A DNA stretch of 64,000 nucleotides, from positions 1,696,001 to 1,760,000 of the forward strand of contig OZ220741.1 of the NCBI GenBank assembly GCA_965116885.1. The letters are read 5' to 3'. This document shows, piece after piece, positions 45,366 to 52,341 of the stretch (the stretch's first letter is position 1; each line of letters begins with the position of its first letter). The translations under genes were made by a program, and so were the position numbers. Under the pieces are notes generated by a model. That model had not been told where the DNA came from. It made no database searches and was given only the letters and a program-made list of their open reading frames with translations. This DNA comes from Candidatus Latescibacterota bacterium. GTDB lineage: Bacteria; Latescibacterota; UBA2968.

Positions 45366-48300
45366 GTGATGGACTTGCGGAGATGGATAATTATTTTTGC
45401 AGGGGGTGTGATAGGCATGGTCAATGCGGCGATGGCACAGAATACACCATGGCGCTATGATTTTGAGGCGTTGTCCGGGTCCTATCGGGCAGATGCAGGC
45501 AGTCAGGTTTCGCTTTCGACGAGGCGTTACAAGGGAGGAGCACAATCTCTGAAGTGGGCATGGCAGAATAATGGGCGGATTGTGTTCACGGATCCCGCGC
45601 CGGGACGTAGCGAGGTACTGATCGGATTTCGGGCGTGGGTGTACAACGAGGAAGCGCTCGATGAGGTGCTGACGTTTGGGTTTGGCACGGAATCTGAGTT
45701 GTCGGCAAATAATCCGCGTTACCAGTTTGAGTTTGGCTTGAATTTTACGGGCTGGCGGGCGATGTGGATCCATTTGCGAGAGGATGCGCGGAATAATTCT
45801 TATACGGGTCCGAGAAATGGGCGTGTGACGGCGTTTGAAATCAGGGCACCGAATAGCGGAGCTGTTTATCTGGATTTGATCGAGTTGGTGGAAAGGATTG
45901 ACTCCAGACGATCTCCAGATGCACAGGTTCCATTTGTGAATGGAGGTGCAAATACAAGTGGCGATAAAACCCGCGAATATCGATGGAGTCTGAATAGATT
46001 GCCGGGTCCGCTTCCTTCGCAGATTACCGATGATGAGAGACGGGCTTTTGAGACGATTGCCCGACGATATGAGGCATGGGTTCTGGGCGATGGGGTGAAG
46101 AATGATCAGCGGGAGCCTGTGAGGATTCGGCTCAATGAACTTACAGCCTATATAAGGCGTGGGCATAGCAATCTGGCGAATTACGAGATTCGGCGGGAAA
46201 ATGACCTCATTCTGGGTAAACCTCTGTTTGCGGCTCGGTCATCCTACAGGCCCTATTTTCAGAGTGTTTTTCAAAATGTCTTGTTGCGTCTGGTGCTGGA
46301 TTATCGGTTGAATGGCAATGAGGAGGCCAGAGACCGGGTGATAGATGTGTTCGATTATTTGCACGATCAAGGATGGGCAGAAGGCAGTGGTGTTGGCGCG
46401 TTGCATCACGAGTTTTTGCGGATTGCGAGCTATGCCCATGCGGTGTATTTGATGCGGGATATTTTGGAGGATACGGAACGGCTGGAACGGGAATTGGCGA
46501 GTTTGAAATGGTATAGCATGTTTGGCGAGTTGTATGAACAGACCTGGGATCCGGGCACGAATGCAGATTTTTTGCGTTCGGTGGCGATGTATCGTTTGTT
46601 GTGTATTTTGATGATGGACGATTCGCCCGAGAAGGTGGCGAATATGCGCCGCTATGTTGTATGGCTGAATAATGCGCTGGATATTGCACCCGGGTGGCTG
46701 GATACGATTAAGCCGGATTACACGGGTTTTCACCATCGGGGTATTTACGCCAATGCGTATGCGCCAAATGCTTTTCACGTGGCTTCTGTGCTGGTGTATT
46801 TGTTGCACGATACGCCTTTTGCAGTTGGGGATGAGAAGCGCGATAATTTGAAGCAGGCGCTGTTGACGTCCAGGATTATGGCGAATACGTATGATATTTC
46901 AACGGCCATTAACGGGCGTTTTCCGCTTAATACAACAGTCACCGATGGTCTTTTGCCGGCGTATATGTATGTGGCTTTGAGTTATCCTTCGGTGGATGCG
47001 GAATTATCGGGCGCGTTTATGCAGCTTTGGAAACCGGATTCGCAGTTGCTGATAGAAGGTTTGTTCGAACAGGTAGCTTCGCGGATTATGTATTTGCACA
47101 CGCCGGGTGCGATGCAGATGATGGCGGATTTTGCAAGTGCGGGGTACGCACCTGTTGCTGAGCCTTCTGGGCACTGGACGTTGCCTTATGGTGCGTTGTC
47201 CATTCATAGGCGTGCGGACTGGATGGTGAGTATGAAGGGGTGGAGCAAGTACGTGTGGGATTACGAGTCGTCAGTCGGTGGTGAAAATCCGCTCGGTCGT
47301 TATTTGAGCTATGGTTCGATGCTGATTTACGCCAGCGGTAATCCGGTTGGCCGGGAGGCGAGTGGGATTGTGCGAGATGGGTGGGATTGGAGTATGTGGC
47401 CGGGTACGACGGTGATTCGCCTGAGTCATGAGCAGCTCAAACACGAGGGGCGGGATCGCAATTTTTCGGATGAGACTTTCGTGGGTGGGGTGAATATAGA
47501 AGGGCAGAATGGTGTGTTTGCACTGAAGTTGCACGATACGAGGTTCAATACGAGTTTTCGAGCGGTTAAGACGGTGTTCTGTTTTGATGATGTACTTGTT
47601 TGCCTGGGGTCGGGTATTGAGAACGATGATGGTGGTCATACGACGGTGACGCCGTTGTTTCAGGCGGCTATTTCTGAGGATCGTTCTACGGGGGTGAATG
47701 GGGAGCGTGTGCATGCGATTCCCTATACGTTTTCGGGGATAGAGAGACAGAGGGCATGGCTAATGGATTCACGGGGCAATGGGTATGTGATCCCCGATGG
47801 TGAGGGTCTGCAGGTGCAGCGTAGGGTGCAAACTCCTGGAGACTTTGGCAACGAGGGTGGTACAGGGGCTTTTGAACTGGCGTATCTGGATCACGGTAGC
47901 GCGCCTCAGGGTGCGTCATATCACTATGCCGTGCTGGTGCAGAGGTCGCCTGATAGGGTGCGTGTGTTTGCCAATGCACCGGAATACGATGTGTGGCAAC
48001 GAGATGGTCAGGCACATATTGTGCGTCATAGGGGGATGAAGATGACGGGTTACGCGCTGTTCGATAAGGATGCAAGGCCAACAGGCGGTCCAGTTGAGTC
48101 TGTGTCTTTGCCGAGTTTGGTAATGTCCCGAGAAGTGGATGATGGGTTATTGCTTTCAGTGGCTGATCCGGATTTTGGGTGGCGTTGGGAGATTCAGACG
48201 CCGCATCGCCAGGATGGTTCGCTAATTGTCAATCAGCCGAGTGAGCCTCGGAAGGTAGAGGTGATAGTGCGCGGCAAATGGCGTTTGGATCAATCCTATG

Positions 48301-48638
48301 ATCTGGTAGAGATTGTAGAGGAGAGCGAGGATCAGACGGTTGTGGCGTTTATCTGTCAGGACGGCAAAAGCGTGGAGGTGAAACTGGTCAGGCCAGGTAT
48401 TGGTGTTGCAAATCTGGATTTTGATGGAGACGGTGCGGTTGGGTTCACGGATTTTTTGCTCTTTTCCAGCAAATTTGGTCTGTCGGAGGGGGATGCGGGT
48501 TTTGAAGCACAATACGATCTGGATGGTAATGGTATGGTGGGGTTCAGCGATTTTCTGATTTTTGTACAGGGATTTGGCAAACCAGTGAGTGGAAAACCCG
48601 TTGCTCTCCGGAATGGAGGAGAAAGATTGGGGTCGTGA
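45366..48638 (+). CDS. Chondroitinase ABC-like polysaccharide lyase (PL8) with C-terminal dockerin/EF-hand-like domain
   Basis: Signal peptide; SLKWAW, LNFTGWRA, DQGWAEGS, IKPDYTGFHH..Y...Y, GRYLSYG, GWDW..WPGTT; C-terminal DFDGDGAVGFTDF...DLDGNGMVGFSDF. Confidence 0.85.
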   Translation: MMDLRRWIIIFAGGVIGMVNAAMAQNTPWRYDFEALSGSYRADAGSQVSLSTRRYKGGAQSLKWAWQNNGRIVFTDPAPGRSEVLIGFRAWVYNEEALDEVLTFGFGTESELSANNPRYQFEFGLNFTGWRAMWIHLREDARNNSYTGPRNGRVTAFEIRAPNSGAVYLDLIELVERIDSRRSPDAQVPFVNGGANTSGDKTREYRWSLNRLPGPLPSQITDDERRAFETIARRYEAWVLGDGVKNDQREPVRIRLNELTAYIRRGHSNLANYEIRRENDLILGKPLFAARSSYRPYFQSVFQNVLLRLVLDYRLNGNEEARDRVIDVFDYLHDQGWAEGSGVGALHHEFLRIASYAHAVYLMRDILEDTERLERELASLKWYSMFGELYEQTWDPGTNADFLRSVAMYRLLCILMMDDSPEKVANMRRYVVWLNNALDIAPGWLDTIKPDYTGFHHRGIYANAYAPNAFHVASVLVYLLHDTPFAVGDEKRDNLKQALLTSRIMANTYDISTAINGRFPLNTTVTDGLLPAYMYVALSYPSVDAELSGAFMQLWKPDSQLLIEGLFEQVASRIMYLHTPGAMQMMADFASAGYAPVAEPSGHWTLPYGALSIHRRADWMVSMKGWSKYVWDYESSVGGENPLGRYLSYGSMLIYASGNPVGREASGIVRDGWDWSMWPGTTVIRLSHEQLKHEGRDRNFSDETFVGGVNIEGQNGVFALKLHDTRFNTSFRAVKTVFCFDDVLVCLGSGIENDDGGHTTVTPLFQAAISEDRSTGVNGERVHAIPYTFSGIERQRAWLMDSRGNGYVIPDGEGLQVQRRVQTPGDFGNEGGTGAFELAYLDHGSAPQGASYHYAVLVQRSPDRVRVFANAPEYDVWQRDGQAHIVRHRGMKMTGYALFDKDARPTGGPVESVSLPSLVMSREVDDGLLLSVADPDFGWRWEIQTPHRQDGSLIVNQPSEPRKVEVIVRGKWRLDQSYDLVEIVEESEDQTVVAFICQDGKSVEVKLVRPGIGVANLDFDGDGAVGFTDFLLFSSKFGLSEGDAGFEAQYDLDGNGMVGFSDFLIFVQGFGKPVSGKPVALRNGGERLGS

Positions 48639-48656
48639 TAGTTTGAAGTCACCAAT

Positions 48657-48691
48657 AAAAAAAGCCGCCACACAATGTGGCGGCTTTTTTT
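48657..48691. terminator. Bidirectional intrinsic terminator
   Basis: A7-GCCGCCACA-CAA-TGTGGCGGC-T7 between convergent genes. Confidence 0.9.
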
Positions 48692-48968
48692 ATTCCTTAG
48701 AATGCGACTTGTCCCAAATGGGTTTTACTTTTTCGATAACTTCGGCATCGGTCGGACTGGATGCGACGATGTTTGTAAATTCTTCAGCTTCAACCCCAAG
48801 TTCCTCCAGGAACTTTCGGTCAGCTGGTCACGGATAGACGTAGTCACCGATGCAGCCTCGCAACTTGGCGCGGGCTTTATCTGTAATGCGCGGGAGCCAG
48901 GGCATGTCGCCCATGTAAAGCTGACGGCTGCGCGGTCTAAAATCAACAGCGGAACTGAGTTTGTCCAT
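48690..48968 (-). CDS. DUF5069-like small protein with in-frame TGA (candidate selenoprotein, Sec47)
   Basis: Hand translation: MDKLSSAVDFRPRSRQLYMGDMPWLPRITDKARAKLRGCIGDYVYP(TGA)PADRKFLEELGVEAEEFTNIVASSPTDAEVIEKVKPIWDKSHSKE-TAA; AAGGAGG RBS; terminator directly after TAA. Confidence 0.8.
48785..48827 (-). promoter_or_regulatory. Candidate bacterial SECIS hairpin
   Basis: Directly 3' of the UGA: CAGCU/AGCUG and GACC/GGUU lower stems, apical AAGUUCC-UGGA-GGAACUU (48815-48798). Confidence 0.7.
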
Positions 48969-49031
48969 TTTTCATATCCCTCCTTGTGTTGTGATAGTTA
49001 AAACATAGTGATTTTGGCGATGGATAGCAAG

Positions 49032-49604
49032 TTAGAAAGTGAGGGTGTATGTGCTCAATGTTGTGTCGCCGTATTTTTTTTGTCGGGAGAGGGTGAGCTT
49101 GGAAAAGGATTCTGGTAGCGGTGTGCGAGAGGTGTGTTGGACGAGAACGCGGGCGTTGGGAGCGAGTATCGGAATTGTTGCGAGGCGGGTGAGTATCGCG
49201 CAGGACATGGGGTGTCCGCCTAATTGTTGTTGGTAGGGAGGATCGAGGTATATGATGTCAAATATGGAACGGGACCGCACGAGTTGGGGCAAGAGTTTTT
49301 GCGCGGGACGCGCGTAAAGATAGATGCGATCGTTGAGATGCCAATTGTCTATTAGCTGTGCGATGAAGCGGTTGCAGCGGCGGTCGGGTTCGTTGATGAC
49401 CACCTGCGCACCGCGGCTACAGGCTTCGAGGCCGATTTGACCCGAGCAGGAGAAGAGGTCGAGGAAATAACTGCCGCAGAGGATTTCGCCGAGGGAAGAG
49501 AATACGGCTTTTTTGACAAAGTCGGATGTGACGCGGGCATTGCCGTACTTTTTGTTGTTAAAGGGGATGCGGCGGCCCTTAAATTCCCCAGCGATGATGC
49601 GCAT
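49032..49604 (-). CDS. rsmD: 16S rRNA (guanine966-N2)-methyltransferase RsmD family
   Basis: MRIIAGEFKGRR, LDLFSCSGQIGLEACSRGA, DIIYLDPPY, KKYGDT. Confidence 0.88.
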   Translation of the reverse strand: MRIIAGEFKGRRIPFNNKKYGNARVTSDFVKKAVFSSLGEILCGSYFLDLFSCSGQIGLEACSRGAQVVINEPDRRCNRFIAQLIDNWHLNDRIYLYARPAQKLLPQLVRSRSIFDIIYLDPPYQQQLGGHPMSCAILTRLATIPILAPNARVLVQHTSRTPLPESFSKLTLSRQKKYGDTTLSTYTLTF

Positions 49605-49615
49605 AAGAGCGTGTT

Positions 49616-52099
49616 TTAATTTCCATACCGGAAGCGCACTTCGCGTTCGACGCTCTTGCCACTGACCAGGTCGGTTACGATGACCTCGAGTGCGTTGACA
49701 CCGGGTCTGACTTTGTTGAGGACGATTTCGACGTATTCGCGCTCGTCGGCGTCGCGTCCCGTGAGTTCGTTGGTGATGGCCACCTGGGGTTTGGTGGTTC
49801 TAAAGATGGTGCGCAACCCCGTGGCCACCGCGCCAAATACGCCAACGGCGGGCATGGCGCTGGAGCGAATGCGGTATTCGGTTTTGTAGCGGGTTTGTCC
49901 AAAGGTGTCTTTGGTCAGGTTGTAGATTTCAAAGTAGGCATAGACATTTTGCTTTATGGCATAACTGCGCGTGGGAATGGGAATGATCCACACGTCTTCT
50001 TTTTGGAATTTTGTCGCGCCTGCTTCCGCAATGTTCGAAGCCAGTTGAATTTCGCTGACCTGGAGTTCTGGGATTTGATAGTCTCTGACCTGGAGTTCTT
50101 GCCGGTAGAGTCCGGTGCGTCCAGAGATGAGGTCTTTCATCTGCACCTGGAGTTCGTATTTGCCAGGCGGCACCTGTGTTTTGATGATTTCAGGCACAAA
50201 AGTACCCTGTTCAGTTGTGCTGTGTACTTGTGCGCCGCGATACGCAAACGCATCGGTTGTGCGATAGATAGATGTGTGACCTTCATTTGCCAGCGCAACG
50301 GCCAATTGTACGTGTATGAAACTCGAATCGGCTTCTTGCTCAATTTCGACCTGCTCGGGCGGGATGCCATAGTAGATCTCGAGATTGGTCTGGCCGTCGG
50401 GTCCGCGGAAGTGCGCCAGGTCATAGTAGAAATTGAGTATATCGCCGGGAAGACCAGGGCGATAAAAGTCGGGCGAAGTCGATACGGCTTGCTGATAGAT
50501 GACTTCGGGTGTGTGTTCGGTCATGCGGGCGATATAAGCGATGGCTTCGGCATCTTCGGTCGTGGCTTCGGGCAGTGGGGCAAAGTCATAGCGTCCATTG
50601 CCCATTTCGTCGGTGAATGTAATCTCTATGCCCCCATTGAGCTGAATATAGGTCCAGGTTTCCCAGGGCACGGTATCAATTTCATTGCCAATGGTAATGG
50701 GGGAATAGCGGCCAAATTGTAAGCGGGTGTTGAGTTGTCCGGTTTGCTCATCGAGAACGCTTTCGATGGTACCGTCACGCTCAAATGGATTGCGCTCAAA
50801 ACCGAGCCTGAAGCCCTCACCCTCACCGCCTTCGGCTTCGGGGAGTTCGGTCATACCTTCATCGGCGGCTTCGGTAGCTTCTTCGCCCGTAAAACTTTCG
50901 TCGTCGGCGATGTCAGTAGGGGAGTCTGGCTCAAAGAGAGAACCTGTTTCGCGGTTGGTGCGAATGGGAAAGACGGGACCTGTGAAGGTGAAGAAGGCCG
51001 CTTCGGGACCGTAGATGTCAACGGCCATCTGCGTACGCACGCGCTCTACTTCGGCAGTTTGAACAAAATTGCGGTCATTGGAGCGCGAGCGGTAGTCGGG
51101 TTCGCCATATCGGATATAAACAGCACCTCGCTCATCCCAGGGATAGACATTGGACGAAAAATAGGTGCGTGCATACCAGGTGCGGCGGTAGTGTTCGATG
51201 ACGCGCTCGTTGAGCTTGGTGAGGATGTCGGGGTCGCGTCGTGCCCAGAATTGCTCGCGATATGCCTGTTGTTCGGGTCCCGGTGTGGCGGCGTGGTATT
51301 CCTGGAGTTCTGTATCTGAGGCAACGTAGGCAATATTGGTGTAGTGTGCGCGTTCACTACCTTCGGTGTTGGCGAGATAGCGCTCGAAGAGTTCGAGGGC
51401 TTTTTGCGCCTCGTCGTTGTAAAAATGGCCCTGCGCAACAATGGGCAAGAGATGAACGACGTCGGGATTTGCCGTAAGATAGGGGGCAATATGTTCGCGT
51501 ATTTTGTCAAATGCTTTGGCCTGTACACAGGCTAAACCGTAGTAATAAAGGCCCTCGGGATTATCGGGTTCGAGTTCGACGTATTTCTGATAATACTGCA
51601 TGGCTCTGGTGTGGTCTTCTTGAAATCGCTCATAGACTTCGCCGAGCAAGCGATAGGCCGGACCGTAGTTGGGATCGAGTTTGGTCGCGCGCTTGGCTTC
51701 GCGAATGGCTCTGCGAAAATTGTAATAAGATTGCATTCCTCGCGTGGGTGCTTCGGCATACGTAAGGCCAAGCCCGACATAAGCTTCAACGAGGCTTTTG
51801 TCCAATTTTTTAGCTATTTTGAAGGCGCTTTCAGCTTCTTTATATTCTTTCCGTTTGAGATAGATATAACCCAGTTGAGAATACACATGGGCATCTTCGG
51901 GGAAAAGTTCTAATATGCGTTGCAGGGTTGCCATGGCCTCGTTGATTTCACCCGCTTGAATCTGACGCTGACCCAGGGCAAACATCGTATTTCGATAGGC
52001 TTTGTCTTGTTGAGGCGTTTCATCTTCTTCTGCAAAAAGAGGCAGCGCAATGCAAGAGGCACAGCAGACAACCATCCAGAACCGCAATCCAATTTTCAT
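49616..52099 (-). CDS. Secreted TPR + GWxTD-domain protein (paralogue of 24127-26478)
   Basis: TPRs, FWARRDPD...EHYRR...PWDERGAVYIRYGEPDYRSRS, PWETWTY; start moved to MKIGLR. Confidence 0.85.
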   Translation of the reverse strand: MKIGLRFWMVVCCASCIALPLFAEEDETPQQDKAYRNTMFALGQRQIQAGEINEAMATLQRILELFPEDAHVYSQLGYIYLKRKEYKEAESAFKIAKKLDKSLVEAYVGLGLTYAEAPTRGMQSYYNFRRAIREAKRATKLDPNYGPAYRLLGEVYERFQEDHTRAMQYYQKYVELEPDNPEGLYYYGLACVQAKAFDKIREHIAPYLTANPDVVHLLPIVAQGHFYNDEAQKALELFERYLANTEGSERAHYTNIAYVASDTELQEYHAATPGPEQQAYREQFWARRDPDILTKLNERVIEHYRRTWYARTYFSSNVYPWDERGAVYIRYGEPDYRSRSNDRNFVQTAEVERVRTQMAVDIYGPEAAFFTFTGPVFPIRTNRETGSLFEPDSPTDIADDESFTGEEATEAADEGMTELPEAEGGEGEGFRLGFERNPFERDGTIESVLDEQTGQLNTRLQFGRYSPITIGNEIDTVPWETWTYIQLNGGIEITFTDEMGNGRYDFAPLPEATTEDAEAIAYIARMTEHTPEVIYQQAVSTSPDFYRPGLPGDILNFYYDLAHFRGPDGQTNLEIYYGIPPEQVEIEQEADSSFIHVQLAVALANEGHTSIYRTTDAFAYRGAQVHSTTEQGTFVPEIIKTQVPPGKYELQVQMKDLISGRTGLYRQELQVRDYQIPELQVSEIQLASNIAEAGATKFQKEDVWIIPIPTRSYAIKQNVYAYFEIYNLTKDTFGQTRYKTEYRIRSSAMPAVGVFGAVATGLRTIFRTTKPQVAITNELTGRDADEREYVEIVLNKVRPGVNALEVIVTDLVSGKSVEREVRFRYGN

Positions 52100-52341
52100 G
52101 GTATTCTCCCGATGGAAAAGTCGGAGGACCAGATGTGTTTTAGTATTTGTTAAAATATTGTAAGGAGATGTCTTTGTCAACAGATTCCAATCAGTTAAAC
52201 ATCGTACAGGAGGCTATGTTGATAACGCCTGACTGATGGGGCGGTTCCGGTTTTTGCGATTCTGTACTTGACCCTCTGAAAAGAAGAGTCTTATGTTGAA
52301 GCAATGGACAAAAGAGGATCTAAACCATTTAGGGGGATTTA

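Follow-up and report, generated by a model that had tools for sequence, protein, structure and literature searches.

We found a short DUF5069 gene in a Latescibacterota bacterium that is almost certainly an intact selenoprotein gene, with comparative evidence assigning its in-frame UGA codon to selenocysteine (Sec). SelB bound to Sec-tRNA(UCA) would recognise a short stem-loop 19 nt past the UGA and would insert Sec at residue 47, and the product would be a soluble, mainly helical DUF5069 protein of 92 residues. A 92-residue Sec protein had been proposed in an earlier sequence-only reading of this DNA, and the proposal is now supported by a conserved Cys column, selection acting past the UGA, the presence of selA/B/C/D in the genome and a hairpin that is conserved only in UGA forms.

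The gene lies on the minus strand of the window, by which we mean the whole stretch of 64,000 nucleotides that was analysed. It runs from an ATG at 48968 through 46 codons to the TGA at 48830-48828, and then through 45 further codons to a TAA at 48692-48690. Translation with TGA as U gives 92 residues with U at position 47. The features of the locus are as follows.

49032..49604, minus strand: rsmD, 16S rRNA methyltransferase, the upstream neighbour, given as context only; the order is the same in families f1 and f2.
48979..48985, minus strand: Shine-Dalgarno sequence AAGGAGG, read from the sequence, with a spacer of 10 nt to the ATG.
48690..48968, minus strand: short DUF5069 (PF16798) gene of 92 residues with predicted Sec47, based on read-through translation, Pfam, orthologs and RNA-library contigs.
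48828..48830, minus strand: in-frame UGA, codon 47, in the family's conserved Cys column and the motif Y-P-U-P-A-D, based on alignments and ortholog codons.
48785..48826, minus strand: putative bacterial SECIS hairpin, based on folding and conservation; only the apical stem-loop 48815-48798 (loop UGGA, 48808-48805) is kept between genera.
48659..48684, minus strand: intrinsic terminator-like hairpin with U tail (site 48684-48667), which is terminator-like on the plus strand too.

This arrangement reproduces exactly what the sequence-only reading had described, from the Shine-Dalgarno sequence to the terminator after the TAA. That reading had also seen no sensible gene in the ORF track, and the table-11 ORF list indeed holds only opposite-strand shadow ORFs at the locus. 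All 30 orthologs compared upstream have a purine-rich, RBS-like stretch 5′ of the start. No Rfam match reached the gathering score in 48500-49200, where the weak matches are terminator look-alikes, and a plasmid collection searched with the gene gave no match. A convergent lyase gene on the plus strand ends at 48638, beside the shared terminator-like site. This gene (45366-48638) encodes a chondroitinase-like polysaccharide lyase of family 8, 1090 aa long, whose C-terminal tail resembles a dockerin or EF-hand. Upstream of rsmD, at 49616-52180 on the minus strand, is a gene for an 854-aa protein with TPR and GWxTD domains, and a similar-looking protein is encoded upstream of selA.

RNA-library contigs from close relatives span 48679-48985, and the flanks are mostly uncovered. 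The contigs come from four libraries, three filed as sponge metagenome and one as metagenome; two of the four are apparently duplicate filings of a single data set. The UGA is unchanged among the differences listed, which leave aside six less-supported ones. These contigs, from which strand, level and ends are not readable and in which DNA carry-over is possible, are compatible with transcription of the DUF5069 gene.

The DUF5069-like identity claimed earlier was confirmed by an HMM search. The read-through protein matches the Pfam DUF5069 model with E 1.5e-16 (61.2 bits, against a cut-off of 27), and PF16798 is the only family found in the Pfam scan. The half before the UGA matches profile positions 4-37 (E 2.8e-6) and the half after it matches 42-78 (E 0.0015), so homology continues past the TGA. 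The selenoprotein covers only positions 4-77 of the 133 in the profile, which is less than a full-length domain. It belongs to a short subfamily; the protein stops at 92 aa, and a terminator-like site follows its gene. Cys occupies column 47 in 139 of the 179 proteins aligned from databases, a count that includes the query with its U written as C, and some DUF5069 repeats lack this Cys. Another 12 of the 179 end exactly before column 47 and 5 show Trp there, which points to mis-annotated Sec forms. The crystal structure PDB 3OMD, from Leptospirillum rubarum, matches in sequence (E 1.2e-11) and has a Cys aligned to U47. It differs in its length of 145 aa, compared with about 81-94 aa in the short form, and in having Cys instead of Sec.

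The source genome (G000) also contains a second DUF5069 gene (G000:C1:3354762-3355616, plus strand), a 284-aa tandem with Cys only in the column of the second repeat, and a third (G000:C1:3633374-3633820, minus strand) for a single-domain protein of 148 aa that lacks the Cys. Family f2 has forms with three repeats, about 435 aa long.

Matches to the gene were present in 125 of 168 Latescibacterota genomes. After exclusion of six genomes in which just a paralog or a fragment matched, 119 orthologs span the codon, of which 104 have an in-frame TGA and 15 have no stop. In the 96 of these loci that were fetched for codon reading, column 47 is TGA (81), TGC (10) or TGT (5), and no other codon occurs. 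A second set consists of the 24 loci, out of 80 returned, that were not covered as Latescibacterota; they are mostly titled Poribacteria, and their codons are TGA (18) and TGC (6). TGA at this column thus extends across four families and the Poribacteria set at roughly 44-99% identity. The claim that the UGA sits at the family's Cys position is therefore borne out by the aligned proteins, by 3OMD and by the ortholog codons. Among sampled Poribacteria genomes, 145 of 151 have a match, with a TGA inside the match in 140 and no stop in 5; for these counts the codon position was checked in the 24 second-set loci only, and forms without a stop have Cys wherever checked. DUF5069 occurs in 34 of 151 Verrucomicrobiota genomes (82 matches), where no Sec form was found; the three matches with a TGA have it as the terminal stop.

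The sequence after the UGA is, judging from substitution patterns, under purifying selection. In the four genera tested, crude counts give pN/pS values of 0.08, 0.14, 0.37 and 0.22 for this part. A tree built from 105 proteins after masking the Sec/Cys column requires 9 changes of state, at least 5 of them forced by well-supported branches; the alignment has only 90 columns, and gain and loss are not distinguishable. One Cys form, from a record titled Opitutales (L172:1-6240), is nested in family f4 on the tree and has the same two upstream genes as its neighbours there. It is either a transferred block or a binning error.

All of the genes for Sec insertion that the sequence-only reading had wanted searched for are present in the source genome, which is a single contig of 5.56 Mb and 98% complete. 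selA (E 1.4e-147) adjoins selB, and selD adjoins a tRNA-Sec with a UCA anticodon, corresponding to selC. The selD gene likewise contains an in-frame TGA, with a hairpin whose loop distance is like the 19 nt of the DUF5069 gene. More of this genome's long ORFs end in TGA than in any other stop codon (867 of 2203), so the UGA at codon 47 would represent site-specific recoding.

Further UGA genes in the source genome are deiodinase-like, peroxiredoxin-like, UGSC and TlpA-like, as judged by visual comparison of their motifs with Table 1 of PMC13188914. The first three, named by motif, are at G000:C1:638292 (plus strand), 4348487 (minus strand) and 1502689 (minus strand). The TlpA/peroxiredoxin-like gene (G000:C1:607506-609530, minus strand) has an in-frame UGA in a W-U-G-C motif and is directly upstream of selD, itself a UGA gene, and tRNA-Sec. 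Together, these form a small selenium cluster.

Of the 168 Latescibacterota genomes, 131 gave a selA match, including 102 of the 104 TGA genomes and 12 of the 15 Cys genomes, as did 3 of 4 TGA genomes tested from the Poribacteria set. UGA forms are thus confined to Sec-utilising genomes, apart from three in which selA had no match: G082 (80% complete), G094 (81% complete) and G176 (from the Poribacteria set, completeness not given). In genera g14 and g29, neither of whose genomes has selA, all three of the genes found are Cys forms. Cys forms also occur in selA-bearing genomes, namely at least 12 from Latescibacterota and five from the Poribacteria set, which indicates that Sec is not required for function.

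The hairpin directly after the UGA agrees with the SECIS-like structure described by the sequence-only reading. The 61 nt from the UGA fold with -20.7 kcal/mol (z -3.7), and 0 of 200 shuffles are as stable. The apical stem AAGUUCC/GGAACUU has 7 bp and carries a 4-nt loop, UGGA, which starts 19 nt past the UGA and has G in its second position. These values fall within the bSECIS criteria of PMC13188914 (Fig. 2), which are a loop of 3-9 nt, an upper stem of 4-16 bp, a distance of 16-37 nt from the UGA, G in the first two loop positions and an MFE of at most -7.5 kcal/mol. As a control, we applied a loose SECIS-like pattern to the in-frame TGA triplets of the source genome, and it follows 23,684 of 181,398 (13%). 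Given this background, the hairpin alone is weak evidence, and conservation carries the case. A genome-wide scan for motif plus hairpin was rejected as evidence, because this background makes it too noisy. When the genome was scanned by coding score, the DUF5069 gene came up together with three selenoprotein types already known, amid many artefacts at gene junctions.

We defined the core of the hairpin as the five inner pairs and the loop G. At a fixed distance, 80 of the 81 Sec loci keep it intact and none of the 15 Cys loci does. The second set, mostly from Poribacteria, gives 18 of 18 and 0 of 6, and pooling yields an intact core for 98 of 99 Sec genes as opposed to 0 of 21 Cys genes; this definition of the core was set after the data were seen, and the related genes are not independent. 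One Cys form (L038) retains the four innermost pairs. Two further signals do not depend on this definition. Within the core, the codons are nearly frozen (CTG 81/81, GAG 80/80, GAA 75/75, TTC 79/81), whereas outside it none of 46 degenerate columns reaches 97% (median 56%). None of the four genera shows any synonymous divergence within the core (pS 0), whereas pS elsewhere is 0.19-0.75. One core pair is G-C in 44 genes and C-G in 37, a swap that may be a single event, and other pairs vary by G-U. Covariation, for which the sequence-only reading had suggested a check, scores 0.324 versus 0.171 in shuffled alignments (0/500) and exceeds all slid controls; the score is based on 49 of 73 distinct Sec sequences and is inflated by relatedness. 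Other genera do not share the long lower stem that this hairpin has in the window.

The gene resembles the bSECIS selenoprotein genes described in section 5 of PMC13188914 in having a UGA at a Cys column, followed within 16-37 nt by a stem-loop whose small loop contains G, and in the presence of selA/B/C/D in the same genome and of Cys homologs elsewhere. The mechanism is not new, being standard bacterial recoding.

The UGA could instead be a true stop in a broken gene, arising by pseudogenisation, a nonsense mutation or a sequencing error. In favour of this, the codon is TGC in two genomes from the same genus, whose proteins are 95-96% identical, and hairpins resembling SECIS follow so many TGAs by chance that one here need mean little. 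However, an accident would not place TGA at the same column in most loci of four families and of the Poribacteria set, nor would it limit the codons there to TGA, TGC and TGT. Purifying selection past codon 47 also opposes it, as do the relatives' RNA contigs, in which no variant at codon 47 is among the differences listed. We consider a broken gene to have practically no chance of being correct, and the conservation has already refuted it. Scarcely more probable is a reassigned codon, with Trp or Gly inserted at the UGA under genetic code 4 or 25, or a leaky UGA that ribosomes pass without Sec. Five database proteins do have W at column 47; most simply, these would come from gene callers using code 4. 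Against a changed code, TGA terminates many long ORFs of this genome, column 47 alternates solely with Cys codons, and the genome has tRNA-Sec(UCA) with selAB.

The predicted structure of the product (pLDDT 89.5) has a small hairpin and four helices, with U47 directly before the helix at 48-57. The model superimposes on 3OMD (Foldseek probability 1.00, rmsd 1.4; VIA Z 12.4). In the Foldseek and VIA searches, this uncharacterised protein is the only match, the next best having a VIA Z of 4.4, a result that does not imply a new fold. Near-invariant residues in 107 family members are R27, D30, K31, R33, A34, C47, D50 and D74. Sec47 is very probably the reactive residue, to judge from alignment and model: its column is near-invariant for Cys, it precedes a helix, and the other conserved residues are charged (R27, D30, K31, R33, D50, D74).

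Cys39, eight residues before the Sec, had been suggested as a possible resolving partner, and this did not hold for the family. It is confined to the window's genus, g1 (20 of 96 loci), and was ruled out as a family-wide resolving Cys. A Cys at +24 from the Sec occurs in 25 of the 81 Sec forms, and 38 of the 81 have no Cys at all. We found no CxxU/UxxC motif or other conserved resolving Cys in these 81 forms. The protein thus differs from thioredoxin-like and CxxU/UxxC selenoproteins in its non-thioredoxin fold, its motif Y/F-P-U-x-x-D and its lack of UxxC/CxxU.

A Sec residue nearly always points to a site of catalysis or metal binding. On this basis, we rank redox chemistry first, binding of a metal or cluster second and a group carrier third. 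In the predicted redox chemistry, Sec47 would attack a peroxide, disulfide or persulfide substrate, and an outside thiol or flavoprotein system would re-reduce it; the outside reductant is proposed because no resolving Cys is conserved. We infer this single-Sec redox role with about even confidence for and against. It is unlikely that Sec47 instead binds a metal or Fe-S cluster, for example one shared between the subunits of a dimer or between repeats in tandem, or serves to scavenge a soft metal. The presence in the same genomes of DUF5069 proteins with two or three domains in tandem would suit this role, as would the homolog fused to a NuoF-like FMN/Fe-S protein. A few Verrucomicrobiota copies are near genes that, from their motifs, may encode DtxR/MntR- or Fur-like regulators. 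On the other hand, a second conserved Cys or His ligand is absent, no metal-resistance neighbourhood is conserved in the 96 loci, and the gene is near-universal in two phyla. Resistance genes are typically patchy, unlike near-universal genes. Metal-related selenoproteins do appear in Table 1 of PMC13188914. The same table holds single-Sec precedents (rhodanese, DsrE and methylated-DNA-protein-cysteine methyltransferase) for the role that we consider quite improbable, in which Sec47 would carry a group covalently or act as a nucleophile (a sulfur/selenium carrier, or an acyl or alkyl acceptor) in a pocket of R27, K31, R33 and Asp residues. A single reactive residue without a partner would fit group transfer, and the conserved charged residues might suggest an anionic ligand. 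The neighbourhoods show no link to sulfur-relay or repair genes, however, and the Foldseek and VIA searches gave no carrier-like fold, a result that does not amount to exclusion.

The genomic context gives weak hints in the direction of redox chemistry. The neighbours of the window's gene (rsmD and the lyase) are housekeeping or unrelated, and clustering of the neighbourhoods of the 96 loci revealed lineage-specific synteny only, with rsmD upstream in families f1 and f2 and small lectin-like and kinase-like genes in f4. A gene for an FNR-type oxidoreductase is directly downstream in 25 of 50 loci of family f4, with two different FNR types represented; these neighbours are common to kin, and in the source genome they are elsewhere or missing. 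Directly upstream in 3 of 24 second-set loci, all of one clade, is a fusion that, from its motifs, is presumably glutaredoxin-thioredoxin-reductase-like. Among 38 long homologs scanned, fusions involve a cupin (3), an AI-2E transporter (2) and, once each, a NuoF-like protein, a metallo-beta-lactamase-like protein, a dienelactone hydrolase and a methyltransferase. The FNR, glutaredoxin-TrxR and NuoF-like associations amount to a weak redox context. In 30 Verrucomicrobiota loci, no shared partner was found.

In f4 loci (L062, L068, L116 and others), the region from about 1400 to 0 nt upstream encodes a small PA-IL-like protein and then a kinase-like protein. This pair precedes the DUF5069 gene in most f4 loci; the kinase-like protein has no Pfam or NCBIfam match, and both genes are elsewhere in G000. 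The NuoF-like fusion (P0107) has a DUF5069 domain with an N-terminal extension, and the same extended subfamily occurs unfused in P0046, P0151, P0169, P0171 and P0179.

DUF5069 selenoproteins are apparently uncatalogued, in agreement with the sequence-only reading, which did not recognise an established selenoprotein family. Table 1 of the 2026 review PMC13188914 catalogues 119 selenoprotein families, and PF16798/DUF5069 is absent from all 119 as that table gives them. NCBIfam 20.0 gives 0 matches for the read-through protein at E 10 and has no model for three short Cys homologs either. A full-text search of the openly available literature for DUF5069, PF16798 or IPR031849 found no paper. In the accessible parts of the literature, papers naming 3OMD are unrelated to DUF5069, and those on selenocysteine in Latescibacter or selenoproteins in Poribacteria show no sign of it. 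DUF5069 is likewise not named in the accessible portions of deep-Sep (PMC12013277) and four supplements, the BSepDB paper (PMC13326102) and one supplement, SelCysML (PMC13745706) or the Haft and Gwadz preprint. The DUF1858, DUF523, UGSC and hypothetical DG/DW/DF families, as listed in Table 1 of PMC13188914, are similar in being known only from genomes, with UGA/Cys pairs and SECIS elements. We found no sequence relation to them with NCBIfam or Pfam, and DUF5069 differs in its unusual prevalence in two uncultured phyla.

Tentatively, we can sketch a broader picture, which is possible rather than probable. New redox or group-transfer chemistry, fed by FNR/TrxR-type flavoproteins, might be carried out by a single Sec within a charged pocket, in a protein whose helical fold has no counterpart among characterised enzymes. 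This protein would be a near-universal, unlisted selenoprotein of two largely marine or sponge-associated uncultured phyla (the Latescibacterota class of the window, and Poribacteria). Sec and SECIS would have been gained or lost at least five times, each time along with an identical 12-nt core that also dictates the peptide F-L-E-E.

New selenoprotein families are reported regularly. This one would add a non-thioredoxin fold to the roughly 120 prokaryotic families, and would correct the gene in about 240 genomes of two phyla, where public protein sets cut or misread it. The repeated switches between Sec and Cys, with matched gain or loss of a minimal SECIS, provide a clean natural set for studying what SelB needs. 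Although DUF5069 has had a crystal structure since 2010, no paper on it was found in the literature searched. Alternation of Sec and Cys is a classic pointer to a catalytic or metal-binding residue, and the selenoprotein forms would therefore give the first functional handle on DUF5069.
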